Both the position numbers and the translations under genes were made by a program. The notes under the pieces are model-generated. The model made no database searches and was not told the DNA's origin. It saw only the letters and a program-made list of their open reading frames with translations. Positions 10,534 through 35,714 of a stretch of 64,000 bases of DNA are shown here, in pieces (positions within the stretch are counted from its first letter, which is position 1; every line of letters starts with the position of its first letter). Source of the stretch: a virus (taxonomy: Duplodnaviria; Caudoviricetes). The stretch lies in IMG/VR virus record IMGVR_UViG_3300025892_000008; one strand, written 5' to 3'.

Positions 10534-11299
10534 GTCTTTCTATATCCTCTTCTATACATTCGCTGCCCCATTGTATCTCTAACACATGTGCATTCACACC
10601 GCCAGGGTTACTTGCTTGATGCCAAACTTCTTTATCTATTTCATATGATCTTGTATGTGGTAATAAATGCACATCATCTACTCTATTATCCCATTCTGTT
10701 TTAATTTTTACAACACCTTGAAGTATTGACCAAACTTCTGATCTCTTAAAATGTTTTTGGTCGCTTAAACTTTTACCTGGATATATTACAAGCTCTTTTA
10801 CTTTGTATCCTGCTTCTGGATTGTGATCTAACACTCTCCAATATCCCCAATCTCTTTCTGTCTTTTGTGTCTTCCATTCGTCTAGAATCCAACTACTTGA
10901 ATTCATTTTGTTTGTACCACCAACACCAAATGCAAATTCTATATTAGGATGATCGCCGTAAATTTTGCTCTCAGGTGTCGTTAAATCTGTCCTGTCACCA
11001 CCATTAGCAAAAACATAATTACAATCTGCTGTTGTCGCCATTAGTTTATATATTGCACCACATGCACTATCGTCATCGTCATTAAATGACAATACTCTAT
11101 CAACAACTTCTAAACTGTTGATAATAGCACACCTGTCTTTGAATGTCATAAATGGTCTGCCTTTTTTACGAGTCAGCCATTCATCAGAATTTAATCCAAT
11201 AACTAGTTCGTCTCCTAGTTCTTTTGCTGCTTTGAAATATTCAATGTGTCCACTATGCAGTGGGTCGAACCCACCTGTTACTAATACTATGGTTTTCAT
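10523..11299 (-). CDS. Fusion of HIGH-family nucleotidyltransferase (TagD/RfaE-II-like) and cupin (MPI type II-like)
   Basis: TGGFDPLHSGH, GLNSDEWL..KKG, FANGGDR, SSS; C-terminal ERDWGYW...LSDQKHFKRSEVW...WHQ. Confidence 0.8.
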   Translation of the reverse strand: MKTIVLVTGGFDPLHSGHIEYFKAAKELGDELVIGLNSDEWLTRKKGRPFMTFKDRCAIINSLEVVDRVLSFNDDDDSACGAIYKLMATTADCNYVFANGGDRTDLTTPESKIYGDHPNIEFAFGVGGTNKMNSSSWILDEWKTQKTERDWGYWRVLDHNPEAGYKVKELVIYPGKSLSDQKHFKRSEVWSILQGVVKIKTEWDNRVDDVHLLPHTRSYEIDKEVWHQASNPGGVNAHVLEIQWGSECIEEDIERRET

Positions 11300-11335
11300 A
11301 GTAGTATTTATGTGCGTAGTTAATGGGAGATAAAA

Positions 11336-12664
11336 TTAAAGAGTTTTGTGCTTTTTCTTTTTTTGTCCAACATTAAACCCTTTCTTTTCAGAAGGTTTAA
11401 AAGGAAAATTGTTTCTAGTAAGGTATTCGTGTAAACAACTTTTATATACACTATTTTTTAATGCAGGAGATAACCAAAGGAATTCTTGTACTAAGTCATT
11501 ATCAAGGAATGGATATCTAGTTTCAACTCCAAAATGTCCTGCTACATATTCTTCTTTATTAAGATATTTTATTTGTGTTCCGTCATAAAAACTTTGCCAA
11601 GGAAAGAATCCATCTAAACTTTCAGGGAAAAGTCCACCGAAGCCGCTGTGTTTATATTTCTTAACCCCACCAAATCCGTAATCACTTATAATTTCATCTG
11701 CACCCTGTCCTGAGAAATAAATTTTTCTTTTCTCTTTATTAGCCCTATGACAAATTGCTGCTAGGCCTTTTGATGCTTGATCTTCTTTTATGTTATATTT
11801 CTTTTTGCCAGTGCCGTAAATAAAATCTTCGCAGTTATTATCTAGCTCTTGTTGCCAATGATTGTATTCGTCTGTAGTAAGATTAAATGCTTCTGCATTA
11901 GTAACTAGTTTTAATCTTCTTTCCATAATTTTAGGATTTTCTGTATTAAGTATGGAATATGTTTTAAAGGAAACATTTTGTTTTTCTAGCTCACAGGTTA
12001 TAGCACCACTGTCATAACCTGAACTTAAACCTACAAACATACCTTGTTTTGTATTTGCAGTTCGTTTACGAATACTATTACTAAATGCTGTTAACCAATC
12101 GTCAAATGTTGTTTTGTGCTGTTTTATATCAAATGTTCTGTTTTCATAACTAGTAAGTTGTGTTAGTGTAGATAAATTAAAAACAAGTGTTGTATTTGAT
12201 TTAAGTTTTTTGCCATTCTTAAATCCTAATCCATCTAGTTGACTATTGTATGATGCAATACAAAATTTATCGTCTCTCATTTCATACCAAAGTGGTTTGC
12301 AACTAAAAGTATCTACAGAAATAATTAGTTTTTGTTTCTTGTAATCAATTAAACATAATGCAAATTCTCCGTCTAAATCTTTTACAAAATGTTCGCCTTT
12401 AGTATTATATAGATCTATAATACATTCACTGTCACTATTATAATTTCCAAATGATGTATAATTATAAATTTCTCCGTTAAAGACACATACTACATCATCT
12501 TTTATTAACGGTTGAGGAGTCAACTCACCTGTAATATGTAACAAATTATGTAGATAATATACTCCACGGATTTTTTCAGCAGTAGTCATGTCAGGACCTC
12601 GGTTCTGACAATGTTTATTTGAGGTTATCGGATCACTATAATTTGTGGCTGCAAATCCGCACAT
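11336..12664 (-). CDS. asnB: Asparagine synthase (glutamine-hydrolysing)-family amidotransferase
   Basis: N-terminal MCG (Ntn Cys), RGPD, FNGEIYN, LSSGYDSG, SGQGADE, RYPFLD. Confidence 0.85.
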   Translation of the reverse strand: MCGFAATNYSDPITSNKHCQNRGPDMTTAEKIRGVYYLHNLLHITGELTPQPLIKDDVVCVFNGEIYNYTSFGNYNSDSECIIDLYNTKGEHFVKDLDGEFALCLIDYKKQKLIISVDTFSCKPLWYEMRDDKFCIASYNSQLDGLGFKNGKKLKSNTTLVFNLSTLTQLTSYENRTFDIKQHKTTFDDWLTAFSNSIRKRTANTKQGMFVGLSSGYDSGAITCELEKQNVSFKTYSILNTENPKIMERRLKLVTNAEAFNLTTDEYNHWQQELDNNCEDFIYGTGKKKYNIKEDQASKGLAAICHRANKEKRKIYFSGQGADEIISDYGFGGVKKYKHSGFGGLFPESLDGFFPWQSFYDGTQIKYLNKEEYVAGHFGVETRYPFLDNDLVQEFLWLSPALKNSVYKSCLHEYLTRNNFPFKPSEKKGFNVGQKKKKHKTL

Positions 12665-12665
12665 A

Positions 12666-13304
12666 TTAAGTCTTTAATTTACTTCTTGCTTTTTTATCTT
12701 TGCCGTCTATATACATGCCGCCTTTTGGGCCTTCCATTCTATGAATCTTAGAATGTAATTGATCAGCATCGATAAATTTATCGCCTGTTTTTCTTACAGC
12801 GTATAAGCGCCAGCGAGATAGTAAAGCAGTTCCTAAAAAAGTATAATCAGAATAATTAGTTATATTATCCCAAAAAGGAATATCGTAATAATATTGACAA
12901 TGTCCAGGCTTTGTTACTCCAAGTTCAGGACCAATGTGTATTGCTATGCCGCCAATTTTTAAACTATTATGAACGTTTAAAAATGCAGTATGTTGAGACT
13001 CGTATGGTTCAACATGTTCTATTGTTCCGGCATTTGTAATTACATCAAAATAATTTTTGAATTCAGTAAAGTCTTCAAGTTTAGACAAATCTTTTACTAG
13101 CGCACCGTCTAATCCATTAAGATCAACTGACGTATGCTCGTAACCTAGTCTTGTAAAATATGCCTTGCCCGTAGTTTCGTGTATTTGTTTGTCTGGACGA
13201 ATAACTTGATTACCAAGTTCTAGCATCTTTAATCCGTATGTGTTTGGATAAATTGGAGTAATATGATCATTCATCCAATTAAGATAAGAGGGTTTGTATC
13301 CCAT
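12666..13304 (-). CDS. Class I SAM-dependent methyltransferase
   Basis: LELGNQ, SVDLNG, FDVITNAGTIEHV. Confidence 0.7.
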   Translation of the reverse strand: MGYKPSYLNWMNDHITPIYPNTYGLKMLELGNQVIRPDKQIHETTGKAYFTRLGYEHTSVDLNGLDGALVKDLSKLEDFTEFKNYFDVITNAGTIEHVEPYESQHTAFLNVHNSLKIGGIAIHIGPELGVTKPGHCQYYYDIPFWDNITNYSDYTFLGTALLSRWRLYAVRKTGDKFIDADQLHSKIHRMEGPKGGMYIDGKDKKARSKLKT

Positions 13305-13892
13305 CTATTTTTCCTTTCTTATGAAAAACAGTCCGCTTTCATTAATATGCTTACCGTTTTCATTATTTTGTTTTGTGCCGGTACATAGTTTTCTTATTTC
13401 TTTTGAATCTGCCTCTGCATAGTTAAACCCTCGGGCTTCCATATGTTCTATCCAATATTCTTGCCATTGACAGTTTACATGATGATGTCCACGTTGTCCG
13501 GGAATACCGTGAGTCATAAAGATATATTTGCCACACGTTAATGTTGTTAATAAGTTATCAATATATTTCTCTTCGACATGCTCTACTACTTCAATACAAT
13601 TTACCATTTCAACTTCCGTAGTGTAACTACCTTCTGTTAAGTCAACTCTTCTTGTCGGGTATACTGCATTGTCTACATTTTGTTGTAAACCTTCAATAGC
13701 ATAAGACCTTAATCCTTGTTGTGCAAACCATTTTGAATGATGGCCGTATCCGCTTCCTACATCAAGTACTGATCTAATATTATATTTTTCTATAATATAT
13801 GTCCATGCTTCTGGAGCAAATGTATGTCTGTTTAATGAAACGTTATTACCACCTAAGTGTGGTTGTGTATTATCTATTATTACTTCTGCCAT
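13305..13892 (-). CDS. Class I SAM-dependent methyltransferase
   Basis: VLDVGSGYG, CIEVVEHV, GHHHVNCQ..EYW; AAGGAG SD. Confidence 0.8.
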   Translation of the reverse strand: MAEVIIDNTQPHLGGNNVSLNRHTFAPEAWTYIIEKYNIRSVLDVGSGYGHHSKWFAQQGLRSYAIEGLQQNVDNAVYPTRRVDLTEGSYTTEVEMVNCIEVVEHVEEKYIDNLLTTLTCGKYIFMTHGIPGQRGHHHVNCQWQEYWIEHMEARGFNYAEADSKEIRKLCTGTKQNNENGKHINESGLFFIRKEK

Positions 13893-13939
13893 TTAGTCTC
13901 CTTATACAGTTACTTATCTGTATGCCATTTATTATATAC

Positions 13940-14398
13940 TTATAGTGATGCATCATCTAGTCCAGCAGTTCTAAGTTTAACAATATTAGATAACTGCCAT
14001 TGTTTAATGTCTAGTCCTTTAATTATTCCTAGCCATTTGTTACGTAGTAGTGCGAATTCATTTATAATTTTTTCGAAGTCAACAACATCGGCTTCGCCAT
14101 CTACAAATTTTTCAGCGTCTCTTGAGCTTAATTGACGTTGATAATTTTCAACATATTTTCTAAAATGTGTTGCACGTAAACGGCGAAGTTCGATGTTTAA
14201 GTATTCGAGTATTGCTTCAATTTCTTGAAGTTGCCCAAATCGAGTTTCAACAAGTGCTGGCATAACCGACGATGCTTTTTCAATACGACCTGTAATATTT
14301 GTTTCCTTTTTTGCTTGCAATAATTCTGCTTCGTAATATTGTACTGCCGCAGGGATATTGTTTACATCTTTAGAAACTTTATCATACCAATTTGTCAT
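13940..14398 (-). CDS. uvsY: UvsY-like recombination mediator
   Basis: Helical protein with Y.ENY.R.LSSRDAEKFVDGE and KGLDIKQWQLSNIVKLRTAG; downstream of uvsX; start moved to MTNWYD. Confidence 0.75.
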   Translation of the reverse strand: MTNWYDKVSKDVNNIPAAVQYYEAELLQAKKETNITGRIEKASSVMPALVETRFGQLQEIEAILEYLNIELRRLRATHFRKYVENYQRQLSSRDAEKFVDGEADVVDFEKIINEFALLRNKWLGIIKGLDIKQWQLSNIVKLRTAGLDDASL

Positions 14399-14399
14399 A

Positions 14400-14621
14400 T
14401 TAATTCCAATCTTCTTCTTCGTCAGTTGGTTCGTCTTCGAGAACATATTCAAGTGCAGCATCAAGATATGTATCTATACCCATCATACCTTCTAATGTTG
14501 ACTCAGGAATATCGTAATCAAGTAATGTATTAACGTATTCTTGAGCAGCCTCTGCTTTATCTTTCTCTGCAATCTTCTCGCTTAAGACACCCCATATGTC
14601 TGCTATCATGTTTGCTTCCAT
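14400..14621 (-). CDS. Small acidic hypothetical protein
   Basis: Fills the uvsX-uvsY gap with 1-3 nt spacing. Confidence 0.7.
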   Translation of the reverse strand: MEANMIADIWGVLSEKIAEKDKAEAAQEYVNTLLDYDIPESTLEGMMGIDTYLDAALEYVLEDEPTDEEEDWN

Positions 14622-14624
14622 ATC

Positions 14625-15695
14625 TTACTCCGCTACAGGTTCAGTTATCTCCTCTAACTCGACTTCGACTGGTTCTACAGTCTCAGGCTCCTTACCAAGT
14701 TCTTCCATAATTATGTTTAGTTTGTCGCCAGTCCAGTTTTTACGATACTCTAAATGGACTTCTCCATTCAAGTCTGTATATTTAAGTCTATTACCATCTT
14801 TCTTAAGCAAACCTTTTGCTTCAAACAAGTCAACACATCCACTGTATGGATCCATTCCTGTTTCATATGGAATCTGTACTTGTACTGCTTCAAACGGCTT
14901 TGCATAACGTGTTTTCATTACCTTACACGCAGCACGAATACCTTGTACTGTAGTAGTCTTATTACCATCTGCGTCTACTTTTAGTTTAAGTTTACGCATA
15001 GCAACAACAATACTTGATGCATATATAAAGCCTTGTCCACCACTAATCTTGTCATCTGGATCAAACATATCTTGTGATGCATATGTGTGGTTAGTACATA
15101 CCATACCTACGTTATAACTACCAATCATATTAACAGTATTACGTACAAGTGATGTTAGTGCTTTAGGCTTACGACCCATATCACCTTTCATATCACCTTT
15201 GTTAAACTGATCAACATCTGTAGGTGTTAGTAACATACCAAGTGAGTCAATTACAAACAATACTTTAGGGCGTTCTTCTTCTGCCATATCTCTGTATTCT
15301 TTCATAAACTCTGATATTGTTTTAGCAACATCATCAATCATGCTCATGTTAAGTTTAAGAATCTTTTCTGGAGATGTGTCTACATCTAATGCGTGTAGCC
15401 ATTTCTCATCTAAGGCATTCTCTGTGTCAATTAGTACTACAAAGATACCTTGTTCTTGTGCCGATTTTACAATATTACCGGCAGCAATATATGATTTACC
15501 TGCACCCGATTCTCCTGCTAATACAGTTACCTTGCCTAGTGGAACACCTTTGTGGAAGTCGCCACTTACAAGATAGTTAAGTGCATAGTTGCCTGTGCTG
15601 ATCCAATCTGTAGGATCATTAAAGCCAATACCAAGTCCGTCAATAGACTTTGTAAGACTTTTTCTAAATTTAGTTACGTCAAACGCTTTTGCCAT
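14625..15695 (-). CDS. uvsX: UvsX/RecA recombinase
   Basis: GESGAGKS Walker A, DTENALD, VIDSLG, ISGGQGFIYASS. Confidence 0.92.
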   Translation of the reverse strand: MAKAFDVTKFRKSLTKSIDGLGIGFNDPTDWISTGNYALNYLVSGDFHKGVPLGKVTVLAGESGAGKSYIAAGNIVKSAQEQGIFVVLIDTENALDEKWLHALDVDTSPEKILKLNMSMIDDVAKTISEFMKEYRDMAEEERPKVLFVIDSLGMLLTPTDVDQFNKGDMKGDMGRKPKALTSLVRNTVNMIGSYNVGMVCTNHTYASQDMFDPDDKISGGQGFIYASSIVVAMRKLKLKVDADGNKTTTVQGIRAACKVMKTRYAKPFEAVQVQIPYETGMDPYSGCVDLFEAKGLLKKDGNRLKYTDLNGEVHLEYRKNWTGDKLNIIMEELGKEPETVEPVEVELEEITEPVAE

Positions 15696-15717
15696 AATTA
15701 CCTTTCCTTTGTTAAAG

Positions 15718-15769
15718 TATGAGAGACCTCGCTGGTTACCGTAAGGAGGTTTTTGCCGGAACTCTCATA
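15718..15769 (-). other. Candidate structured RNA in the ssb-uvsX intergenic region
   Basis: Nested stems UAUGAGAG/CUCUCAUA and ACCUC/GAGGU with an 11-nt bulge and a 15-nt loop; no U-tract. Confidence 0.4.
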
Positions 15770-15775
15770 AACTCT

Positions 15776-17157: not shown

Positions 17158-20106
17158 TTAAAATTTAATAAGATCTTTAATTCTACCTAGTTCTTCTAGT
17201 TCGTCTGCGCCTTGTTCTTGTGCAGGAGCCATTCTCTCTACCATCTTACGTGCAACCTGCTCAGCCTGTTCACCAAACTTCTTGCCTACCATTGTTGCTA
17301 CACCTTCTGGGCCTTTTGGAAAAGTGCCTGTAGTACTATCATAAAAAGATTTAATAAATTCTGCTAAACCTTCTAATGTGTGTTCTTCACCATCTGATGT
17401 TTTAAACTTAGTGCCTTTCTTAGCACCTTGTGCTTTAAGAGACGAAACTTTATCGCCGTATTCGTTTCCTTCAGTTTCTTGTCCTTCTAAATCAACAGGC
17501 TCACCCATTACATCTTCAGCGTCTACATCACGTTTTACTTTTTCAAGTCCGTGCTTTTTAATTTTTTCGATATAGTCTTTGGTAATCATATCAGCATATG
17601 CATCATCAGCATCTTTGCCGCCTGTTATTTCTGCTTCTAGTTGCTTAATGCATTCTTCTTCACTATCACAGTTTGAAATAATTTCCATTCCACCTGTAAG
17701 TGCCATATCCCAAGCATTACCACCTTCTGAAACTGATCCTTCTTGTGGTGCTTGATTGTCCATATAATCTTGCATAACCCACATATGAAATTCTTCCATT
17801 CCTTCTAATTCTTCCATATCTCCGGAGTCAACTTCTGTACCGTCTGTGTAATACACAGGAGCATTTACATTAAACATCTCATCACTAACATCTTGCATGT
17901 CGTAATCTAGTTTGTCCATATCAACTTCTTTGCCTTTAAACATTATTGGATCATTCATTTGTCCATAATATCCACCGGCTTCTTGTGTTTTGCTATAAGA
18001 TTCGCCTGACAGTTTCATAATATCATTTAGTTCATCTGCTTCAGGATCTTTGCCTTTGAAACCTTTGAATGCACTACCGCCACCTTTTAACTCTGGTTGC
18101 GTATCTTTGTAGTCATCATCGGAGTCTTTGTTCATTAATTCTTCTTGATGCTTTTTAAGTTCATCAATAGTGTCAAATGGTCCGCCTGTAATTTTCTTAT
18201 CTTTAATACTAAAGAACATACCGTCCTTTTGAATAGCAGCAAGTCCATACTTGTTCATACCCATTGATGGATCTTTCATAAACTTACTTGTCACACCTTC
18301 TTCTTGTTGTGGTTCAACTTCGGCTGCGCCTGCTGTTGGCTCATCAATCATATCACCAAAATCTAATTCGGATAATACGTCTGGTGCATTTTCTTCAACC
18401 CAAGCCTTAACCATAGGACGAACATCTGCTTCTGGCTCTGCCTTTTTAATATCTTGCTCTAGTTTAGGATCTTCAATAATGCCTTCTAAACTTTGAATAG
18501 CATTAATACCTTCTACGCCTGCTTGGAATTCTGTCTTAAGCATTCCATTTAGTTTTTTAACCATGTCTGACTTTTGTTCTTCGTCTGCCGTTGTTAGTGG
18601 AGATTCTTCGCCTAGTTGATTAACCCAATTTTCAAACTTTGCAAAGCCTTCCATACCACCAGCATAAGCATCTGCGGCTGGACGGCCTTTTGGTCCTTTG
18701 TTACCTTGCTCCTGATCTTGATGTTCTTGAGCACCTAATATTTTAAGACATTTCTTACCTGTCTCATAAACGTCTGCTGGATCTGCATCAATCATATCTC
18801 TCATCGCTGAATAACAACTTAATGTTTTATCGTCGGCTTTAAGATGCATGTTGGCAAAGTGGTCTCCCATTTCATCTGCAATATGATCATTGTCAGTAAA
18901 GTCGTCACTGGCTTTATTCATTAAATGATAGATGTCGCCTTCTAGCTCGTCTTTAAGTTCTTCTGCATTTAGTTGACTATTATTTTCTATGTCTTCTGGA
19001 CCAAATAAATTAAGTTCTTCTGGATCTGTAATTCTATCTGCCTTATCAAATGCATCTTCCATGCCTGTCATTGCGACTATGTCGTCATAGCCTACAGTTT
19101 CTTCTTCCTTCATTAATTTATAAATGATAGGAAATGCGTTAGCAATATCTTCTTTAAAGTTTTTAACTGTAAATTTTTCTGTGTATTCTTTCATTACATC
19201 ATCTGGTATTTCCATTGCCTCTGGCTCTTGGAATTCTGCTACATAGTTTTCGTAATGTGCCTGTTTAGATAATTTTGCAATTCTTTCTCTTAACCCGTTG
19301 AGCTGTGCTTTGCTGCGTTCAACAATTGAATTAGTGTCGGAGTTCATTAAATCGTTACGTACACAGTAATTTGTAAAACTTTTTAGTTGAGCAATTTCTT
19401 CGCTTGTTTTAATAATGCTTTCGCCGATAGCATCATATGGTAACCCGCCGTTAGCCACATGTCGCTGCATAGCTCTTGCACCTGCTAAGTGAACAAAAGG
19501 ATATTTAAATCTTTCACCGTCTTGGTTCTCAACAAATAGTGCAGAAATATTTCTACTTCTATCACCTGGTTTTTGTTCAAAGTCATCAGCAAGTTTCTTG
19601 CTGTGCTTAATAATTAATCTCGTGTCTTCCAACTTTTGGAAACTTTGTGTTTTCGTTCCATAAAGATTACTCTCATTCATTACTGCTTCTCCGACGGGTT
19701 TAGTTATTGTATCGTTATCCGATTGTGGCGTTGAGTGTTGACTAAGGAAAGCATAATCACGTTTGTCTAAATTATCCTTTGCAATGTCTCTAGTATCAAA
19801 TGCCAATAGTCTGCGTTTTGCAAACATTCTAAGTTCTTTTAGGAAAGCGTACCAATTACCTTTTTGATCTTGGTCCATACCTTCGGTAATACCACTCGAA
19901 AAGTATACCTTCATTGAATTAGGTTCTGCTAAACTAATGCTTACATGCCCTATGTTTTTATCGTTTTCCATGTAGTCAAAATCAAAGAAACGAGCATTTT
20001 CAGGGTTAATTGTAATTTGCCCTGTTGATTCGCCTAGTTTTAAACCTGTAAATCTACTTCTAATTTTATAGAACAGATCGGTTGAAATGTTGTTGGTTGC
20101 ATCCAT
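17158..20106 (-). CDS. Large acidic modular protein (982 aa), probable virion/head-associated protein
   Basis: Co-transcribed after the terminase; start moved to MDATNN (TAAATA-5nt-ATG; the track start is a TTG); strongly D/E-rich. Confidence 0.7.
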   Translation of the reverse strand: MDATNNISTDLFYKIRSRFTGLKLGESTGQITINPENARFFDFDYMENDKNIGHVSISLAEPNSMKVYFSSGITEGMDQDQKGNWYAFLKELRMFAKRRLLAFDTRDIAKDNLDKRDYAFLSQHSTPQSDNDTITKPVGEAVMNESNLYGTKTQSFQKLEDTRLIIKHSKKLADDFEQKPGDRSRNISALFVENQDGERFKYPFVHLAGARAMQRHVANGGLPYDAIGESIIKTSEEIAQLKSFTNYCVRNDLMNSDTNSIVERSKAQLNGLRERIAKLSKQAHYENYVAEFQEPEAMEIPDDVMKEYTEKFTVKNFKEDIANAFPIIYKLMKEEETVGYDDIVAMTGMEDAFDKADRITDPEELNLFGPEDIENNSQLNAEELKDELEGDIYHLMNKASDDFTDNDHIADEMGDHFANMHLKADDKTLSCYSAMRDMIDADPADVYETGKKCLKILGAQEHQDQEQGNKGPKGRPAADAYAGGMEGFAKFENWVNQLGEESPLTTADEEQKSDMVKKLNGMLKTEFQAGVEGINAIQSLEGIIEDPKLEQDIKKAEPEADVRPMVKAWVEENAPDVLSELDFGDMIDEPTAGAAEVEPQQEEGVTSKFMKDPSMGMNKYGLAAIQKDGMFFSIKDKKITGGPFDTIDELKKHQEELMNKDSDDDYKDTQPELKGGGSAFKGFKGKDPEADELNDIMKLSGESYSKTQEAGGYYGQMNDPIMFKGKEVDMDKLDYDMQDVSDEMFNVNAPVYYTDGTEVDSGDMEELEGMEEFHMWVMQDYMDNQAPQEGSVSEGGNAWDMALTGGMEIISNCDSEEECIKQLEAEITGGKDADDAYADMITKDYIEKIKKHGLEKVKRDVDAEDVMGEPVDLEGQETEGNEYGDKVSSLKAQGAKKGTKFKTSDGEEHTLEGLAEFIKSFYDSTTGTFPKGPEGVATMVGKKFGEQAEQVARKMVERMAPAQEQGADELEELGRIKDLIKF

Positions 20107-20117
20107 ATTATTATTTA

Positions 20118-21707
20118 TCAAAAACCGCCGCTTATGAATATAGGCATTGGGTACTGGTCTTCGGTCATTCTCTCCGTCATTTTTTCATATATTTTAGGAT
20201 CCCAATCAGCCAATTGACTTGCCATGCGTATGATTAGTAAGCAAGCACTGACTAAATCGTCATGTTCGCCTGTTTTAGCACCGTATCCTACACCGTGTGC
20301 TACAAATGTCTTTAACTCTGATATTAACGGTTTACTATTAATCTTCAACTTGTTTCTTTCTAGTGCATTTTTAAAAGTGCTACAGGCAGTAATCTTTGTT
20401 TTGTGTGTGGTGTTAAATCCTTTTCTAAATTTTCTTACATGTCCTTTTCTCATAGGTTCACTTAGGAATAGCCCGTGGAAGTTTTCTTCACCTATATCTT
20501 TAATAACAACTAATGCTGCTTCGCCTATGGTGTTATTCTCACAACTGTAATATATTGTAGGATTTGCATTGCCGCCGGCAGTTTGTTCATCATAAATGTA
20601 TTTTAAGATGCTCTTTAAATGTCTTATCTGTTGCTGTATAGGTGTAAGATTGTGTCTCCATTCTCCAACCTGTTCCATTGCAGGCATTTCAAATATCTGT
20701 ATGGCTGAGTAGTCGCCACCAGTTCCTAGTGATGGATCAAGTGATAACAAATAAGTTGCTTTAGGATTAATTTTTTTATACCAACGTGTTTGCCCCATAT
20801 TTTGAATTGGTTCTTTGCCTTCAAGTTCAGCAAGTTTCACACTATTAATTAATGTTTCATCAAAGATTAAAAATTCGCAATCAAACTCACGACGGAATCG
20901 TTCGTCTCCAATTTTGGAACGTTCTTCTGCTGCCCATGCATCATCTCTATCTGGATGCTCTGTCCATGGAGCAAAATAAGGATAGAAGCCGTTGGTTCCT
21001 ACAACGTTGTCATTACCAAATTCGTCAAACTTTTTATTTGCTTCTGTCCAAATCATAGCAAACTGATCTTCATCTGAGTTTGGTGTGCTTGTAACAATCG
21101 CTTTACCACCTGTTGACAGTGTAGGAGAAAGTGCAGTCCAAAACTCTTTGGCTTTTTCTGGTGGTTGCACAAACGCAAACTCATCACAGTATATTAATGA
21201 AAGTGATTTACCACGTCCAGTATCTTCTGTTGTGGTTGTTGCTTGTATTCTACTGCCGTTATCAAATTCAATTGTGTTTCTGTTGTATGTATAGATACCA
21301 GCACGAACAAAGTCAGGCAATGTTTCATACCCGTATCTAAATCTGTTCATGATGTCCTGCGCACCTGTATATTTGTGTGCAGCAATTAGCACCTGCGATT
21401 CAGGAGTAAACATTGTATACCATAATAAATATCCAGCAGCACAGGTTGTCTTGCCCATCTGTCTTGGTAGCATAGCAACACAGTATCTGTTTTCTGCATA
21501 TGCTTGAATTAGTTCTCGTTGAAATCCATAAGGTACAAACTTCATTGAACCTTTTACAGGGTGTTGAATGGTTAGAAAGTTTTCACAAAAGTATAATGGA
21601 CCCGTGATAGGATCCATACAAGCCTCTAAGTGCTTGACTTCCTCTAGTGTATATTTTTGCTTTTCATGGGCTTTCTTAATCTGAACGCCATCTAAACTCT
21701 TTGCCAT
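20118..21707 (-). CDS. terL: Terminase large subunit (T4 gp17-like)
   Basis: PRQMGKTT Walker A, IYCDEFAF Walker B, TSTPN motif III, LDPSLGTGGDYS and HDDLV nuclease motifs. Confidence 0.95.
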   Translation of the reverse strand: MAKSLDGVQIKKAHEKQKYTLEEVKHLEACMDPITGPLYFCENFLTIQHPVKGSMKFVPYGFQRELIQAYAENRYCVAMLPRQMGKTTCAAGYLLWYTMFTPESQVLIAAHKYTGAQDIMNRFRYGYETLPDFVRAGIYTYNRNTIEFDNGSRIQATTTTEDTGRGKSLSLIYCDEFAFVQPPEKAKEFWTALSPTLSTGGKAIVTSTPNSDEDQFAMIWTEANKKFDEFGNDNVVGTNGFYPYFAPWTEHPDRDDAWAAEERSKIGDERFRREFDCEFLIFDETLINSVKLAELEGKEPIQNMGQTRWYKKINPKATYLLSLDPSLGTGGDYSAIQIFEMPAMEQVGEWRHNLTPIQQQIRHLKSILKYIYDEQTAGGNANPTIYYSCENNTIGEAALVVIKDIGEENFHGLFLSEPMRKGHVRKFRKGFNTTHKTKITACSTFKNALERNKLKINSKPLISELKTFVAHGVGYGAKTGEHDDLVSACLLIIRMASQLADWDPKIYEKMTERMTEDQYPMPIFISGGF

Positions 21708-21712
21708 ACTAG

Positions 21713-21720
21713 TATTTATA
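21713..21720 (-). promoter_or_regulatory. T4-type late promoter TATAAATA, 5 nt before the terL ATG
   Basis: Exact T4 late consensus; the same core recurs before many structural genes. Confidence 0.75.
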
Positions 21721-21725: not shown

Positions 21726-21749
21726 AAATAGGCTCCGAAGAGCCTATTT
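21726..21749 (-). terminator. Terminator-like hairpin with cUUCGg loop
   Basis: AAATAGGCTC-TTCG-GAGCCTATTT, immediately upstream of the terL late promoter. Confidence 0.7.
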
Positions 21750-22962: not shown

Positions 22963-23553
22963 TTAATTACTCCCTACAGGACTCTTGACCCCTGCTTTGT
23001 CTTGTTTTAATTTTGGTGTGTCTTGATAAACATCTGCTTTTAGTTTATCATGCCCTAGTTCTTTTTTTCTTGCTTTTGCTTCTTTAGAAAGTTCTTTTAA
23101 GAAACCTTTATTGAAGTCATCTCCAAAGTAATCCTTTTGCTTTACGTTCATGCCATCTTTATATTCGTTGTCATGTAGTAATGCACCTTCGTAATCTGCT
23201 TTGCTTCCCATAGTAATTTGATCAATTTCTGTTGGGCTTGCACTATTTCTAACTTTGTAATAACCTGCTTCACAACATTCCATTTCAAAAATTTCTTTTT
23301 CAATTTCTGAAGTAGTAATTGGATACTCAGTCATTACATCAAATGTGTGTACCTCCATGTTTTTCAACGTTGGAAAATCATGTGGTACTTCTGTAACCGG
23401 AGTAGTTTTCATTTGTTCAAATTGCATAATACCGCGATTATCAAGTCTTGCTTTTAAATCGTCTGCAAAACTTTCTGGTAAATCACCTGCAACTTTTACC
23501 TTAAAACTATAGGTTTTTTTGGCTTCTGATAGATATTGTGTGTACGTCTTCAT
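22963..23553 (-). CDS. Hypothetical protein with T4 internal-protein-like N-terminus
   Basis: Begins MKTYTQYLSE; TAAATA-5nt-ATG. Confidence 0.7.
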   Translation of the reverse strand: MKTYTQYLSEAKKTYSFKVKVAGDLPESFADDLKARLDNRGIMQFEQMKTTPVTEVPHDFPTLKNMEVHTFDVMTEYPITTSEIEKEIFEMECCEAGYYKVRNSASPTEIDQITMGSKADYEGALLHDNEYKDGMNVKQKDYFGDDFNKGFLKELSKEAKARKKELGHDKLKADVYQDTPKLKQDKAGVKSPVGSN

Positions 23554-23561
23554 GTAAGTAT

Positions 23562-24050
23562 TTATTCCTTTTCGCTTAATTTCTTAATTAATTCATTGCG
23601 ATCAAGCATTACATAGCCCTTTCCATCGAGAACATCATTAGAATCTTCGGGTGAATCTTGGTCCAATTTAAATTTTTTCAACTGTAAATCTACTGCTTTT
23701 AGTTTTTTATCTACTTTTGCAGTTTTAGCATCTATAGCATTTTTAAGCATACTACTAGCAACTTCAAATATTCGTCCACTATAACGTACTTCTACGTTCA
23801 TGCCTAAATCCATTAGATCATCATATGCTTTTTCTGCTTTATCTGCAAGACTATCTAAATCTTTTTCTTCTAAAGCATCTAGTTCGTTTATCTTAGGCAA
23901 ATCGCCTGTTATTTTAGTTACTTCTTTGTAACTTTCTTCAATGCTTTTAATTTGTTGAGGTGTTACTTCAACAGGAACTGACTCTTCTGCTTGCTTTTGG
24001 GCAGTTTTTTTATCTTCCATATTAAACAGTTCTTCTAATTTCTTTGTCAT
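23562..24050 (-). CDS. Probable terminase small subunit (T4 gp16-like)
   Basis: Helical; GRIFEVASSMLKNAIDA resembles the gp16 central segment; size and head-module context fit. Confidence 0.5.
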   Translation of the reverse strand: MTKKLEELFNMEDKKTAQKQAEESVPVEVTPQQIKSIEESYKEVTKITGDLPKINELDALEEKDLDSLADKAEKAYDDLMDLGMNVEVRYSGRIFEVASSMLKNAIDAKTAKVDKKLKAVDLQLKKFKLDQDSPEDSNDVLDGKGYVMLDRNELIKKLSEKE

Positions 24051-24058
24051 ACTATTAC

Positions 24059-24499
24059 TTATCGTCTCTTGTTGCCAGTGTGAAAAATATCTTCTTCATT
24101 TACAATACGGAATCTAACACGTTTTTGTTTACACCATGCTCCTGCTGCTTCCCATTTTGCCATATTTTTAATATACTGTTCTTGATTGAATCTGCTTTTT
24201 CCAACATGTTCTCTCATAGTTTGGTTTTTAGGTTTTACTTCTATAACTTCCGCTCTCTTCTTTCCACCTTTTTGCAAATATACAACAAAAAAGTCTGGAA
24301 CATATATTGAATACTTTCCTGTTAATGGATCTCTATATGGTATCTTGATACTTTCACTTGCCCATGTTTCTACACCTGGATGTTCATCCAGCATTCTCAT
24401 AAAAACAAACTCCCAACTACTTCTAGCAAGGGGTTTTTTTGTACCTACATATTTTGCAGGATTCTTCATTTCGAATCTTCCTTGTGCAAACTTAGGCAT
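24059..24499 (-). CDS. Head completion nuclease (T4 gp4-like, TnsA-type PD-(D/E)xK)
   Basis: RSSWE, WASE..IPY, Y.PDF, EVKP, KWEAA..WC, F.IVNE. Confidence 0.88.
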   Translation of the reverse strand: MPKFAQGRFEMKNPAKYVGTKKPLARSSWEFVFMRMLDEHPGVETWASESIKIPYRDPLTGKYSIYVPDFFVVYLQKGGKKRAEVIEVKPKNQTMREHVGKSRFNQEQYIKNMAKWEAAGAWCKQKRVRFRIVNEEDIFHTGNKRR

Positions 24500-24868: not shown

Positions 24869-25981
24869 TTATTGTCCGATGTCCTGTCTTCCTGTGCCGG
24901 ATCCACCTAATTTTTTCGGTGTGCCTTTAGTAGTTGAGTTGCTAGGATCATTTTTATTAAACACTGAGCCTGCAATTCCGCTTATTGTATTTGCAACTGC
25001 TTGTGTACCAACTGGGCTAGTAAGTATATTTGTTGCTTCTGATAATAATCCTGCTTTGCTTAATCCTTTAGCACCCTTATAAGTATTTACTGCTTTAATT
25101 GCAGTGCTTAAAAAATTTCCTCCAGAACTAAATGCTGTACCATCTCCAACTGCACCAAACACAGATTCTAATCCATCTAGTACTCCACCTGCTCCTAATA
25201 AATTTCCTGTGCCGCCGCCTCCGACAGTTAAAGGTCCAGGTGTATTATCATAATGTAATGTAGCAAACCCTTTAGGTTCGCCTTCGCTAACTGTTCCTGC
25301 AGAGTAAACAACTGCTTCATACTGTAAAGTCATTGTGCTTTCAGCAGGCTCAGATGTTGCTGCATAATCTCTATTGCCGTGTTGCCAAGTTTTAATTTTA
25401 GGATTGACAAGTGTATATCCTATAAATCTTCGTCTGCCCATTGTATACAAAGTTACACTTTTAAATAGTGGACTACTAACATCGTTATCTAATCCATATC
25501 TAAACTTATCAAATTCTGTACCTGTTGCTCTATAAGGATCTGTTTTATCACTATACGCTGAACTAGGTAAGTTTCTATCTTTAACATAATAACCATAGTA
25601 AATTGCCCATAATGCATTTATAACACCTTGGTTATCATCGTGGAATGTAAAACTTACATCTTCATAATTAATATTTTTGTAAACAATTCTTTTTCGATTA
25701 TACTGATTAAAAGTTTCTGTGTCAAAATTAAACTTTGGTAAGTCAGCAGTCTTTACTAGTAATCCTGTTTCGTCAGCATGCTTTGCTGTAAAATTAGCAG
25801 CCTTGTGTGCAGATGGATCTAATTCAATTTTTAAATAATAATTAAATTTCGTCTTTGGTGCAAGACGCATATTATCATCAATAAACAATCTAGTAGCATG
25901 TGTATAGTTCGCTACTCTACCTTTAGGATTTGTAATACCTGTGAATACGTCTGTCAGAAATCTAGTAAACTTATTTGCCAT
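24869..25981 (-). CDS. Tail-tube-fold baseplate hub/tube initiator protein (gp48/gp54-like)
   Basis: VKTADLPKF.FDTE..NQYNRKR......YEDVSFTFHDD tube-fold pattern; adjacent to the tube gene. Confidence 0.65.
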   Translation of the reverse strand: MANKFTRFLTDVFTGITNPKGRVANYTHATRLFIDDNMRLAPKTKFNYYLKIELDPSAHKAANFTAKHADETGLLVKTADLPKFNFDTETFNQYNRKRIVYKNINYEDVSFTFHDDNQGVINALWAIYYGYYVKDRNLPSSAYSDKTDPYRATGTEFDKFRYGLDNDVSSPLFKSVTLYTMGRRRFIGYTLVNPKIKTWQHGNRDYAATSEPAESTMTLQYEAVVYSAGTVSEGEPKGFATLHYDNTPGPLTVGGGGTGNLLGAGGVLDGLESVFGAVGDGTAFSSGGNFLSTAIKAVNTYKGAKGLSKAGLLSEATNILTSPVGTQAVANTISGIAGSVFNKNDPSNSTTKGTPKKLGGSGTGRQDIGQ

Positions 25982-25997
25982 ACTAGTATTTAGCCAT

Positions 25998-26029
25998 AAA
26001 AAAAGCCCGGGGTTTTAAGCCCGAGCTTT
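25998..26029 (-). terminator. Rho-independent terminator after the tail tube gene
   Basis: AAAGCTCGGG-8nt-CCCGGGCTTT followed by a T run. Confidence 0.8.
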
Positions 26030-30118: not shown

Positions 30119-30246
30119 TTACTTTTCTCCTGGTAATAATTCAATTCATTACGTAATGTATTGTTATATTGTATTTAGCGGAATGATTAAAAAATGGTGC
30201 GTTAAGGCGCTTTAGACAAAGGGATAGAAAAGGTGTAAATACATGT

Positions 30247-30582
30247 ATGAGACCTTTATGCAAGTGCGGTTTAAGACCCAAAGCAGTAAACTATAAGAAA
30301 TACGGTAAAACGTATTATAGAAGTCTATGTGAAGCATGTTCTAAACATGGATTATATCATGGTATACCTAGATGGTATAGAGCAGGTTACAGAATCAAGA
30401 AACAGTGTGATAAATGCGGCCACAAATCGCCGCACAAAGAAGTATTTAGAGTATATCATGTTGATGAGAATCTAGATAACTGTAAACACAGCAATTTAAA
30501 AAGTGTATGTGCTAATTGCCGTACTGTACTATCTAAAGAAGGTGTTAAATGGAAACAGGGCGATTTAGTTGCTGATTATTGA
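30247..30582 (+). CDS. Zinc-binding HNH-like protein
   Basis: CKC, CEAC, CDKC; VYHVDENLDN...NLKSVCANC. Confidence 0.6.
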   Translation: MRPLCKCGLRPKAVNYKKYGKTYYRSLCEACSKHGLYHGIPRWYRAGYRIKKQCDKCGHKSPHKEVFRVYHVDENLDNCKHSNLKSVCANCRTVLSKEGVKWKQGDLVADY

Positions 30583-31182: not shown

Positions 31183-31205
31183 ATAACTCTCTCCTTTAAA
31201 GTTAT

Positions 31206-31233
31206 ATTATAGCATCTATTGCGTGTATGTCAA
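31206..31233 (-). promoter_or_regulatory. Sigma70 promoter TTGACA-16-TATAAT with extended TGn -10, upstream of the dNMP kinase
   Basis: TTGACA at 31233-31228, TGCTATAAT ending at 31206. Confidence 0.75.
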
Positions 31234-31237
31234 GTGT

Positions 31238-31579
31238 TTAATAAAAAGGTTTTGGTTGTCCTGGCTTACCTGTGTTAAGTTTTCTTGCCAAAACACTTGC
31301 TGTGTTAATTGATTTACTTCTCTTCTGTCTACGTGCTTGTGTTGGTGAAGTTCTAGCACGAGTAGTTTTCATTTTTTGTGCTCTAGCAACATTGTACTGT
31401 TGTACACATTTAGAAGGATGACTAACTTGTCTGCCTTTTCTTGGACCTACTGAGCATCTAAAACGCAGTTTAGTTTTGCCGCCTTTAGCAGTAGGAGCAG
31501 CTCTACCCCACACCATTTTAGCAACCTCATTAAAGATTTCCTGATGCTCTTCTTCTGTTACTAATTCGTGTATTTTCAT
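31238..31579 (-). CDS. Basic hypothetical protein (113 aa)
   Basis: Start MKIHELVTE coupled by TAATG to the neck gene; Arg/Lys-rich body. Confidence 0.7.
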   Translation of the reverse strand: MKIHELVTEEEHQEIFNEVAKMVWGRAAPTAKGGKTKLRFRCSVGPRKGRQVSHPSKCVQQYNVARAQKMKTTRARTSPTQARRQKRSKSINTASVLARKLNTGKPGQPKPFY

Positions 31580-32337
31580 TAACCTATAATCCAACTGTAG
31601 CCGTGTCCGCCTGCAACTTGTGTTCCAAGTTCCATGGTCAGTCTTTCAATATCATTAAAGCCTTCTGCTTTAATACTTGCACCGTTAAGTGCTGTACCAC
31701 CTTGTGGACCTGCAATACTTGCAAATTTTTCTCTTGCTTGTCCTACTATTACTTTACAGTTTGCAAGAGTATAATCTTTAACCCATTGTCCTGAATAAAC
31801 ATCTTCGAGTATTACATGATCAGGCTTATCATTGTATGCCCATAATAAAACTTCTTCAGTTCCTCTTGGACGTTGCATAATAATTAGTTTTTTGCTCTGT
31901 GGATTCCAAGTAAAGTTGATAAATGATCCAAACATTTTTCCAACTAGTTCTTGATATTGAGCAAATAATTCGTATGTTGCTAGTCCGCCCATATTGGTTG
32001 AACTTAACAAATATGTATTTGTGTATGCTAAGTTGAACGGTTCAAATACTGTACCACCTGTTCCACTACCTGTACGTGATCCTACACTTCTACGATAAAT
32101 TTGCCTAACTTGTTGTATTTCTTTAGGCAATATATATTCGTTTTGATTCTCTTCTAAACTTAAAGTTATGTAACTTTCTTCCACAGAATTATCGCTACGC
32201 TGTCTAAAAACGCCTAGTGATCTCTGTAATGCTGTTTCATAATGGCCAGGATCAAGCTCGACATCAATCATACCATCGCCTAGCATTAGTCTTACATAAT
32301 CAAATACTTCTTGTTTTGCTTTATCTATTTGGCTCAT
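31579..32337 (-). CDS. Neck protein (T4 gp13-like)
   Basis: YVRLMLG..MIDVEL, W.KDYTLA..K...GQAREKF, PQGG..LNG; start moved to MSQIDK. Confidence 0.8.
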   Translation of the reverse strand: MSQIDKAKQEVFDYVRLMLGDGMIDVELDPGHYETALQRSLGVFRQRSDNSVEESYITLSLEENQNEYILPKEIQQVRQIYRRSVGSRTGSGTGGTVFEPFNLAYTNTYLLSSTNMGGLATYELFAQYQELVGKMFGSFINFTWNPQSKKLIIMQRPRGTEEVLLWAYNDKPDHVILEDVYSGQWVKDYTLANCKVIVGQAREKFASIAGPQGGTALNGASIKAEGFNDIERLTMELGTQVAGGHGYSWIIG

Positions 32338-32381
32338 GTAAGTATTTATGCCTTGTGACGGATTAGGTAAATACATATACT

Positions 32382-33710
32382 ATGCCAAGACTGAGTTTAT
32401 ACCGTCCCGAGAAGGGAAACGATTACAAGTTTATTGATAAAACTGCCTGGGAAATGTTTCAGGTAGGTGGTACCGATGTGCTTATGCACAAGTATTTAGG
32501 TACCGAAGCATCAAGCAAAGAAGCAACTCCAAGCGAGCCTAAATACGATACTCTAAGTCCTACTAATATACAGGATATGCTATTCCTTGAAAATAGAGAT
32601 AGAAAATATGATTCTGATGTTTTTGTTATGCGTGGAGTATACAATGTACAAGACATTGATTTTAATCTAAGCCAATTTGGTTTGTTCTTACAGAACGATA
32701 CGGTTTTTATTACATTCCATATTTCAGATACTGTTGAGAAACTTGGTAGAAAAATTATTCCTGGTGATGTAATAGAATTACCTCACTTAAAAGATGAGTA
32801 TGCTCTTAATGATTTAAATTATGCACTGAAAAGATTTTATGTTGTAGAAGATGTAAACAGAGCGGCAGAAGGATTTTCTGTAACATGGTATCCTCATTTA
32901 TACAGAGCAAAGTGTAAACCACTAGTAGACTCACAAGAGTTCAAAGGTATACTGGATCAAATTGCAGATTCAGAAAACTTCAAAGGAACCTGGAATCCAG
33001 ATTCAACATATTATCCTGGAGATACAGTAACAGCACCTAATGGTCAACAGTATACAGTAACACAAGAAGTTACAGGTACTGCTCCACCTGATACAACATA
33101 TTATAAACTTGCAGATACACTCAAAGATATTATGTCTACGTATGAGAAAGAAATGCAAATTACCAAGGCTGTTGAAGATCAGGCAAATGCAGATACTCCG
33201 CAAAGCGGTTATGACACTACAAAATTATACACACTACAGCAAGACGAAACTGGTAAAACAGAACTTGTTACTGCTGATGGTACAATAGATGATGCAGACA
33301 TTGATACTGTAACTGCTGATACTGTATTCCAATCAGCAGAAGCAAACGGATACAAAGGTTACTTAATAGGAGATGGTATTCCACCTAACGGAGCACCATT
33401 TACTCAAGGTATTGCATTTCCGATGGGACCTGCAGAAGGACAATTCCATCTTAGAACGGATTATAAACCAACCAGACTGTTTAGATTTGCTAAAGGTAGA
33501 TGGAGCAAAGTTGAGGATGATGTGAGAACAAATATTACAAACTTAGGACCAAGTGATACAGCAGCAGGTAAAGATTTTGCTGGTGACGAAAAACGAGAAA
33601 CACAAAAAACTTCATTTATTAATAATACAAACCAACAAGTTATTGATGGTCAAACAGTAAAAGAAAGACAAAGTCTTTCTAAAGCACTAAAACCAAAGGC
33701 GGATGAATAA
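32382..33710 (+). CDS. Neck/head-closure protein (T4 gp14-like) with accessory insert
   Basis: QFGLFL.ND..FITFH, IIPGDVIELPHL, FYVVEDV, W.PHL.R; divergent from gp13. Confidence 0.7.
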   Translation: MPRLSLYRPEKGNDYKFIDKTAWEMFQVGGTDVLMHKYLGTEASSKEATPSEPKYDTLSPTNIQDMLFLENRDRKYDSDVFVMRGVYNVQDIDFNLSQFGLFLQNDTVFITFHISDTVEKLGRKIIPGDVIELPHLKDEYALNDLNYALKRFYVVEDVNRAAEGFSVTWYPHLYRAKCKPLVDSQEFKGILDQIADSENFKGTWNPDSTYYPGDTVTAPNGQQYTVTQEVTGTAPPDTTYYKLADTLKDIMSTYEKEMQITKAVEDQANADTPQSGYDTTKLYTLQQDETGKTELVTADGTIDDADIDTVTADTVFQSAEANGYKGYLIGDGIPPNGAPFTQGIAFPMGPAEGQFHLRTDYKPTRLFRFAKGRWSKVEDDVRTNITNLGPSDTAAGKDFAGDEKRETQKTSFINNTNQQVIDGQTVKERQSLSKALKPKADE

Positions 33711-33889
33711 TGCGTATAGATGAAATATTAGGGTTTGCATCAAAAACTCCAAAGAGAACTACAATTAAGAAAAAAGTACGCAGAGATGATGACGAGCCTC
33801 TTGCAATTAAGTTACAGCAACGAAGAGCTGCTGCTGCAAAAGGTGATAAAAATGCATACACACATAATTTTAAGAAGGCAAGTAACTAA
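33710..33889 (+). CDS. Small basic protein (59 aa), not in the ORF track
   Basis: MRIDEILGFASKTPKRTTIKKKVRRDDDEPLAIKLQQRRAAAAKGDKNAYTHNFKKASN*; TAATG-coupled at both ends and fills the gap exactly. Confidence 0.75.
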   Translation: MRIDEILGFASKTPKRTTIKKKVRRDDDEPLAIKLQQRRAAAAKGDKNAYTHNFKKASN

Positions 33890-35319
33890 TGGATTTTTTC
33901 TACGACGGACAGATTAGAAGATATGTAACACAGTTTATGCGTATCTTTATCGGCTTTAAATATGAAGCAGGTAACGGCGATCAGCAATCTGTTCCTGTAA
34001 TGTACGGCGATTTGACACGCCAGGTAGCAAACATTATTAGAGAAAACTCTGAAAACAAATTGCCAACAGTACCTAGAATGGCAGCATATATTACTGGAAT
34101 GGACATTGATACAAGTAGATTAACTGATCCTACATTTGTAAGTAAAGTAAACATACGTGAAAGAAACTATAATGTAGACGAATCAGGAAATAGAGAATAT
34201 ACAGGCGCTCCAGGAAAGAATGTAACCGTAGAAAGATTGATGCCAACACCATATATGATGACATGTAAACTAGATATATGGACAAGTAATACAGATCAAA
34301 AATTACAATTGCTAGAACAAATAATGGTCTTGTTTAATCCTGCATTTGAAATACAAACTAACGACAACTACATTGACTGGACTAGTTTAAGTGTAGTAAG
34401 AATGACTGGAATGAATTTTAGTTCTAGAAGTATACCTGCTGGAACTGAGTCAGAAATTGACATTTGCTCAATAGATTTTGAAATACCAATGTATGTTTCT
34501 CCTCCTGCCAAAGTAAAAAAACTAGGTGTTGTAAGAAGCATAATAGCAAACATATTTACAGAAGAAGGTGATATACAAAACTTATCAAGTCTAGTTTACA
34601 ATCAGAAAGTTTCAAATGATGTATATGTAAATCCAAGATACCCTGTATTGTTATTCAAAGCAAATAATGGTAATCCTAATGATTATGACTTATCTATATT
34701 AGATCAGAATGCTGCAATACAAAGTTTAGGACTAGATAAAAAAGAATTTACAGATGATAAAAAACTTGACTGGAATGCTGTATTAGCAGCACTAGGAAGT
34801 TTTACAGAAGGTACTAGTACAATACATTTCCGTCAACCTAATGGTGAAGACATCACAGGAACATTTGCAATCAATCCTGTTGATAACTATATTCTCTTAG
34901 TAACAATTGATAAAGATTCTCCAGGATGGACAGAAAATACTTTACTTGTAAGTCCTCAATATCCTGACGGCAAGGGAACGTTTGATGCAATTGTAGATCC
35001 AACTACCTATAATCCTATTGCTAGATTAGGTACTATTCCAACAGGACATAGATTACTAATCTTAGAAGATGTAGCAGATAATGCTGATGGCTGGAAAAAC
35101 AACGACAGCACTAATACATCTATCAAAGCAAACAGTGTTGCTGAATGGAATGGAGCAAGTTGGGCAGTGGTATTTGATCCGGCTACTGTCGAAAATTTTA
35201 CATATCTCAGTAATATTACTACAGGAATACAGTATAAGTGGGATGGTATACAGTGGATTAAATCTTTCGAAGGCGAGTATGCACCAGGTTATTGGAGACT
35301 AGATCCTGAAGGTGCATAA
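33889..35319 (+). CDS. Tail terminator/sheath stabiliser (T4 gp15-like) with C-terminal extension
   Basis: FFYDGQIRRY, VPVMYG, VPRM, MPTPY, DQKLQLLEQI..LFNP. Confidence 0.8.
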   Translation: MDFFYDGQIRRYVTQFMRIFIGFKYEAGNGDQQSVPVMYGDLTRQVANIIRENSENKLPTVPRMAAYITGMDIDTSRLTDPTFVSKVNIRERNYNVDESGNREYTGAPGKNVTVERLMPTPYMMTCKLDIWTSNTDQKLQLLEQIMVLFNPAFEIQTNDNYIDWTSLSVVRMTGMNFSSRSIPAGTESEIDICSIDFEIPMYVSPPAKVKKLGVVRSIIANIFTEEGDIQNLSSLVYNQKVSNDVYVNPRYPVLLFKANNGNPNDYDLSILDQNAAIQSLGLDKKEFTDDKKLDWNAVLAALGSFTEGTSTIHFRQPNGEDITGTFAINPVDNYILLVTIDKDSPGWTENTLLVSPQYPDGKGTFDAIVDPTTYNPIARLGTIPTGHRLLILEDVADNADGWKNNDSTNTSIKANSVAEWNGASWAVVFDPATVENFTYLSNITTGIQYKWDGIQWIKSFEGEYAPGYWRLDPEGA

Positions 35320-35327
35320 GTAGTTTT

Positions 35328-35714
35328 ATGCAAAAGAGAGTAGGACTATTATATCTATCTAGAGATTCGCACAGAATACTTCTTATTTTAGAAAACGAAA
35401 AATGGACCGTACCAACATTTTCACTTGAAAATAGTGTAATACAAGATAGTGAAGATTTACAACAAAAATTTTCTAGAGGTAAAATAATACCTATAGAATT
35501 GTATCTTTCAAAAGACAAAGGTTTTGAGTACGGAACGTATATTTGTCTTGTAAAAGAAGAATTTATTACTGAAGAAATACCAACATTTTGTTGGGCTGAT
35601 TTAGGTTACCTGCCCAAGAATGTACACACTGGACTACGAAGTACATTAAATAATAGTCTTATACGTACAAAAATAGAAACTGTACTGGAGTTAGAAGATG
35701 CTGTCAATATATGA
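35328..35714 (+). CDS. Degenerate Nudix-fold-like protein
   Basis: GLLYL..RILLIL...W and F.Y.TY..LV.EEF..W flanking pattern, but no Nudix box. Confidence 0.4.
   Translation: MQKRVGLLYLSRDSHRILLILENEKWTVPTFSLENSVIQDSEDLQQKFSRGKIIPIELYLSKDKGFEYGTYICLVKEEFITEEIPTFCWADLGYLPKNVHTGLRSTLNNSLIRTKIETVLELEDAVNI

Follow-up and report, generated by a model that had tools for sequence, protein, structure and literature searches.

Late transcription in bacteriophage T4 is a textbook system with leadered mRNAs. The box of the T4 late promoter, TATAAATA, lies at positions -13 to -6 (PMC1524935, PMC2988020), and in the jumbo phage CBB the predicted late motif is ATAAATA, with no recognisable gp33 or gp45 (PMC5259590). 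Here we report that in a 64,000-nucleotide stretch of IMG/VR virus record IMGVR_UViG_3300025892_000008, the whole of which is referred to as the window, a box of this kind (TAARTA) is placed exactly 5 nt before the ATG of nine genes. This arrangement, termed here the N5 layout after its 5-nt spacer, is confirmed, and its box is well supported as a late promoter. From the sequence evidence assembled below, we consider it probable, at roughly 70%, that the N5 genes yield leaderless mRNAs and are translated in that form.

The source of the window is an uncultured marine T4-type jumbo myovirus. Its closest large terminase subunit (TerL) is that of Pseudomonas phage PA5oct (53% identity), followed by those of Phosso, Atu_ph07 and the GAP32 group, and a megablast search of the window against phages gave no match. 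Matches to PHROG families covered structural functions (terL, tail sheath, tail tube, head-tail adaptor, sheath stabiliser, baseplate and tail-fibre proteins) as well as replication and recombination functions (UvsX, UvsY and SSB of the T4 type). Relatives were sampled at 80 IMG/VR loci with TerL identities of 76 to 100%, and a larger related contig of 269.7 kb (G002) was used for counts of spacing. For the orthologue survey, 259 distinct upstream sequences were collected for 8 of the 9 N5 families, the ninth (that of the gene starting at 35328) being surveyed separately.

The pattern TAARTA-N5-ATG was matched 11 times in the window, compared with 3.74 ± 1.87 times per shuffle in 100 dinucleotide shuffles of the window (maximum, 9; none of the 100 reached 11). 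Nine of these 11 matches open reading frames of at least 80 codons, and when only ATGs opening frames of that length were counted, all other spacings (k) between 0 and 40 nt gave 0 to 2; the remaining two matches (43043, minus strand, and 57511, plus strand) lie antisense within genes and are not gene starts. A genome-wide histogram of box-to-ATG distances was proposed as a check in the first-pass annotation of this DNA. These distances peaked at k = 5 both in the window and in G002, where k = 5 held 14 cases, k = 4 held 5 and no other k more than 7, with a broad hump at 16 to 22 nt contributed by leadered genes. The composition of an AT-rich genome might be thought sufficient to produce such matches by chance, since a G+C content of ~36% makes TAAATA common and about four matches occur per shuffle. 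However, 9 of the 11 matches are gene starts, enrichment is confined to this one spacing, and the layout is kept across the relatives despite varying spacers; chance is thereby refuted as an explanation.

The nine sites had been listed in the first-pass annotation, and each was found in place with its spacer as described; the genes that they precede are mostly virion genes. On the minus strand, the TAAATA box at 11305..11310 stands before ATG 11299 of a cytidylyltransferase-like gene (10523-11299), with the N5 layout present in 17 of 18 distinct orthologues and a 25-nt leader with AAAGG in the other. The TAAATA box at 20112..20117 (minus strand) directly follows the terL TGA and precedes ATG 20106 of a gene (17158-20106) for a 982-aa virion protein, the orthologues of which show N5 in 33 and N7 in 10 of 43 sequences. 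The terL gene itself (20118-21707, minus strand) is preceded by a TAAATA box at 21713..21718 that forms part of a full TATAAATA, and its 38 distinct upstream sequences divide into 29 with N5 and 9 with N4. At 23559..23564 (minus strand), the TAA of the TAAATA box is the stop codon of the upstream open reading frame (ORF), and the box serves ATG 23553 of a virion or internal-head-like protein gene (22963-23553; N5 in 38 of 41 distinct orthologues). The tail-tube gene (24869-25981, minus strand) has its TAAATA box at 25987..25992, with N4 or N5 in 38 of 39 distinct orthologues, and the head-tail adaptor or neck gene (31579-32337, minus strand) has its own at 32343..32348, with N5 in all 5 distinct orthologues. 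On the plus strand, the TAAATA box at 30236..30241 precedes an HNH-like gene of 111 aa (30247-30582), N4 or N5 being found in 32 of 33 distinct orthologues. At both remaining sites the box is TAAGTA, its TAA again terminates the preceding gene, and confidence in the box as a promoter is lower. One, at 24056..24061 (minus strand), precedes ATG 24050 of a 162-aa protein gene (23562-24050); among 42 distinct orthologues, 37 carry TAAGTA at N4 or N5, and in the other 5 the box lies 18 to 23 nt upstream. The other, at 35317..35322 (plus strand), begins in the stop codon of a gp15-like gene and precedes a 128-aa gene (35328-35714), the orthologues of which carry TAAGTA at N4 or N5 in 36 of 44 cases, TAATTA in 8 and TAAATA in none; a 49%-identical orthologue is without the box.

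Across the surveyed set of 259 sequences, the nearest box was at 5 nt in 202 and at 4 nt in 36, so that the 4-to-5-nt spacing was kept in 238 of 259 (8 families, 80 loci); it was at 7 to 8 nt in 13, at 1 nt in 1 and at a leadered distance of 18 to 27 nt in 7. Within the 202 N5 sequences, information content was about 2 bits at positions -11 to -6 (1.5 at -8) and 0.2 to 0.6 bits in the spacer, with the T at -1 reaching 1.38 bits. RNA polymerases prefer a pyrimidine at -1 and a purine at +1 of their start sites, and the T(-1)/A(+1) of the N5 genes agrees with this rule. In the window, an A stands at -12 in seven of the nine sites and -13 is free, as has been reported for RB49, KVP40 and S-PM2.

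Two of the boxes lie just behind terminators. In all 79 loci for which sequence upstream of terL was available, the same order was found: a hairpin, a T-run, 2 to 3 nt, TAAATA, 4 to 5 nt and the ATG, with TAAGTA in place of TAAATA in 2 of the 79 and with the letters of hairpin and spacer varying. The hairpin lies at 21726..21749 (minus strand), just upstream of the terL box. Among 26 diverse sequences, 96.5% of its cells were paired, and three pairs showed compensatory changes (27 cells); its covariation score was 0.25, compared with 0.08 in shuffles, and 0 of 500 shuffles reached 0.25. Because pairing is kept through compensatory changes, the hairpin is taken to be a real terminator. A second hairpin with a T-run lies at 25998..26027 (minus strand), upstream of the tail-tube box; such a structure is always found ahead of the tail-tube orthologues, and its stem changes while its pairing is kept. 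With these terminators ahead of them, terL and the tail-tube gene have no more than about 20 nt in which a promoter of their own could lie. The N5 layout is under strong selection.

A further claim of the first-pass annotation, that the N5 genes have no Shine-Dalgarno (SD) sequence, was borne out by pairing energies calculated for 58 genes with curated starts: anti-SD pairing averaged -2.6 kcal/mol in the nine N5 genes and -5.3 kcal/mol in the other genes (Mann-Whitney, P = 0.0014). The start codon is ATG at all nine sites, and GTG or TTG occurs at none of the N5 gene starts. Over codons 2 to 9, the first, second and third codon positions had entropies of 0.47, 0.32 and 1.02, a pattern which indicates that coding constraint begins directly past the ATG; the spacer is as variable as the third codon positions. 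The starts at 20106 and 32337, which had been proposed as corrections to the ORF-finder output, are backed by orthologues and by this codon periodicity, and the frame of the ORF finder's alternatives (TTG 20121 and ATG 32376) is not conserved in relatives.

These observations bear on the possibility that the box is a late promoter from which initiation is offset, such that the transcript has a leader of 1 to 5 nt or starts within the ATG and uses a true start codon farther downstream. Spacers of N4, N7 and N8 do occur among orthologues, and the distance from box to start site is borrowed from T4. However, codon periodicity sets in at codon 2, and N-terminal truncation would cost conserved residues of TerL: its alignment with PA5oct starts at residue 10, and another in-frame ATG is met only 30 codons past the start. 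The spacing is, moreover, fixed sharply at 5 together with T(-1)/A(+1), and GTG and TTG are never used. Offset initiation is therefore considered unlikely as an account of the N5 class.

Several lines of evidence support the first-pass proposal that the box is a T4-type late promoter: its position ahead of virion genes, its variable distance from the ATG of SD-bearing genes, its place behind terminators, the lack of a -35 partner, and the cognate sigma factor that the lineage encodes. In the window, boxes precede terL and the tube, sheath, neck, tail-fibre and baseplate genes. In the leadered comparison case, the box at 30172..30177 (minus strand) lies 53 nt upstream of the tail-sheath ATG 30118, which has a strong SD; in all 32 distinct tail-sheath orthologues the box is at a variable 28 to 64 nt and is always accompanied by CCAGGAGA or TAGGAGA. 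The first-pass annotation had further listed eight gene starts with a more distant box and an SD in between. For these, the box was found 18 to 53 nt upstream and six have a clear SD, but at 49842 and 60477 the SD is weak. No -35 element was conserved in the orthologue set, in which information content was at most 0.41 bits everywhere from -30 to -12. In the window, no box occurs within 60 nt of the UvsX, SSB and 31182 genes, and none was found ahead of the orthologues of the recombinase (15695), 22206 and 31182 genes. Most orthologues of SSB (16774) carry a TAARTA 52 to 74 nt upstream, which makes the contrast less clean for SSB.

A reading of the box as a sigma-70 element was rejected: TAAATA agrees with TATAAT at only three of six positions, the key final T not among them, and real TTGACA/TATAAT pairs occur elsewhere in the window. 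One of these, at 31206-31233 (minus strand), is a perfect sigma-70 promoter (TTGACA-16-TATAAT with a TG) that drives the 205-aa gene 31182, which lies amid late virion genes. In the relatives' sequences inspected, the orthologous gene has comparable TTGAC/TATAAT pairs upstream of it, and the syntenic gene of PA5oct encodes a deoxynucleoside monophosphate kinase. The first-pass annotation had suggested looking for a gp55-like sigma factor elsewhere in the genome, and one was located in the contigs of the relatives, where T4 gp55 was matched in five of five (E values, 7e-7 to 5e-6). The 284-aa sigma ORF of a relative matches phrog_12791, "sigma factor for late transcription" (3.9e-80).

The box could instead be a translational element on leadered or polycistronic mRNA, either an A/U-rich enhancer of the S1 type or a reinitiation signal with a TAA stop 8 nt before the ATG, and not a promoter. 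In keeping with this, the TAA is the upstream stop at three of nine sites (23553, 24050 and 35328) and the box directly follows a stop at 20106; the TAAGTA sites retain their nonconsensus G; and internal genes lacking an SD must be translated from read-through transcripts in any case. When termination-reinitiation was scored by the presence of a stop within a few nucleotides, these same four starts qualified and the other five did not. Of those five, two lie behind terminators and two between divergently oriented genes, whereas the upstream stop at 11299 is 37 nt away. Since an upstream stop is near only four of nine starts, coupling cannot explain the N5 class. Furthermore, the same box stands 28 to 64 nt upstream of SD-bearing late genes, out of reach of initiation, and it fits the late-promoter consensus of a superfamily whose cognate sigma the lineage encodes. 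A purely translational role is thus improbable, although at the two TAAGTA sites (24050 and 35328) the box may represent a weak promoter or a context for reinitiation.

In the mechanism that we favour, (A)TAAATA would act as a late promoter read by the host RNA polymerase together with a phage sigma of the gp55 family, with no need for a -35 element. Roughly half of the late promoters in the window would have had their box shifted to exactly 5 nt, or sometimes 4 nt, from the ATG. With the T4 box at -13 to -6, a 5-nt spacer would put +1 on the A of the ATG in this lineage; initiation 6 nt past the box, as in T4, would give a transcript beginning pppAUG, with no 5' untranslated region and no SD. 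Translation of the N5 mRNAs would then follow the leaderless route, with a ribosome that carries initiator tRNA binding a 5'-terminal AUG, and the other late genes (sheath, tail fibres and baseplate) would retain a leader of 13 to 59 nt with an SD. Where exactly transcription starts, that it takes place late in infection, and how the mRNAs are translated are inferences. The first-pass annotation suggested that leaderless mRNAs might allow the phage to use 70S initiation or to escape host translational shut-off.

A number of observations weigh against leaderless expression of the N5 genes. The distance from box to start site is assumed for this lineage's sigma from T4, and that sigma is known from the relatives' contigs, not from the window's own genome; searches with T4 queries for gp33 and gp45 gave no match in five incomplete contigs. 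Termination-reinitiation on a read-through mRNA could serve the four of nine sites that coincide with or adjoin an upstream stop. Neither TAAGTA site ever shows the consensus A at short spacings, and in some 35328 orthologues T replaces the G. Orthologues with N4, N7 or N8 imply a shifted start or a leader of 2 to 3 nt. The N5 genes did not differ from the rest in having weaker mRNA structure over the 5' coding region, and leaderless translation would depend on the ability of the host to carry it out.

It is also conceivable, if doubtful, that the fusion of promoter and start codon is a deliberate translational switch, rendering a large set of late virion genes SD independent and leaving the early and middle genes SD dependent; its rise in at least two marine lineages of the T4 superfamily would then mirror the translation apparatus of their streamlined hosts. 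Under such a switch, the phage or a host response could shut SD-dependent initiation late in infection with virion production unharmed. A RegB-type nuclease cleaving SD sequences had no homologue, a result that is uninformative because the relatives' contigs are incomplete.

Some neighbouring features deserve mention. The 44-bp intergenic region between 32337 and 32382 holds two divergent TAAATA boxes back to back: the N5 box of the neck gene on the minus strand and, at 32368..32373 on the plus strand, a near-leaderless partner that lies 8 nt before ATG 32382 of a virion protein (7 nt in relatives), a spacing that implies a leader of 2 to 3 nt. A purine-rich tandem element at 30213-30235 (plus strand), composed of AAAGGG(G), 4 to 6 nt and AAAAGGTG, adjoins the TAAATA box of the 30247 gene; the element is kept in about 30 distinct orthologues and lies 11 to 12 nt from the ATG, which is too distant for a normal SD. 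At 41663-41685 (plus strand), a fused cupin/cytidylyltransferase-like gene with no SD at all has a TAAATA box 16 nt ahead of its ATG, and an SD-less leader of about 11 nt would result. Together with the N5 gene at 11299, a second cytidylyltransferase-like gene, this suggests that sugar-nucleotide genes are under late promoters.

The N5 layout was not described in any paper found by literature searches that paired leaderless with late promoters, gp55, T4-like phages or jumbo phages. If the N5 genes are indeed expressed as proposed, abundant marine relatives of T4 would make terL, tail-tube, neck and other genes from leaderless mRNAs, and for some of the most abundant pairs of phage and host in the ocean, translation independent of the SD would be a major way of making virions. 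In such genomes, starts would be misplaced by gene callers that depend on ribosome-binding sites, as would apply to two starts in the window. Late promoters of pelagimyophages, the prediction of which "was unsuccessful" in a published study (PMC7029224), would become easy to spot where published searches missed them.

Among known leaderless systems, the Thermus phages phiYS40 and Lalka27a, in which "most transcripts are leaderless" (bioRxiv 10.64898/2026.04.20.719267), and the cI mRNA of lambda are alike in that an element of the -10 type sets the transcription start on the initiator codon. They differ from the present case in phage lineage, promoter type and sigma factor, and the layout described here is limited to some of the late genes; leaderless mRNAs are, moreover, common in Deinococcus-Thermus, the phylum of the phiYS40 and Lalka27a hosts (PMC12340547).

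The late promoters of T4, with gp55, gp33 and gp45, resemble the boxes described here in their core, in having no -35 element, in serving virion genes and in the gp55-family sigma, and the terL site of the window is a full T4 box. The two systems differ in that TAAATA alone is fixed here, with an A usually at -12, and in that gp33 and gp45 went undetected with T4 queries. They differ also in that about half of the boxes here abut the ATG, whereas the T4 genome has 0 N5 gene starts and 27 leadered boxes, with a peak near k = 28 and leaders peaking near 23 nt. The T4 late system is known; a box fused to the start codon is not a T4 trait.

The Rak2-like jumbo phages (CBB and GAP32; PMC5259590) and PA5oct belong to the same supergroup as the source of the window and have ATAAATA before structural genes and a gp55-like sigma, without a recognisable gp33 or gp45. 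PA5oct differs in having SD-bearing leaders of 20 to 35 nt at the syntenic genes, terL included, and it showed no N5 enrichment (15 matches, compared with 12 in a reversed-pattern control). The idea that the layout is common to the whole supergroup was rejected on these grounds, T4 having none.

The N5 layout was also found in HTVC008M, a cultured Pelagibacter phage of the Kyanoviridae, which is smaller (147 kb) and belongs to a different family of the T4 superfamily. HTVC008M encodes ribosomal protein bS21 (91237-91392; PF01165, 65.7 bits), but a link between bS21 and the layout was rejected, since a search of four contigs from the window's clade revealed no bS21. The TAAATA-N5-ATG peak of HTVC008M is the same as that of the window, with 12 matches at k = 5 compared with 0 to 3 at other spacings, and its N5 and leadered boxes have common flanks (A at -12, G at -5 and T at -4). 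The peaks in the window's clade and in HTVC008M together indicate that the N5 layout is a trait of at least two marine lineages of the T4 superfamily, and not of T4 or PA5oct.

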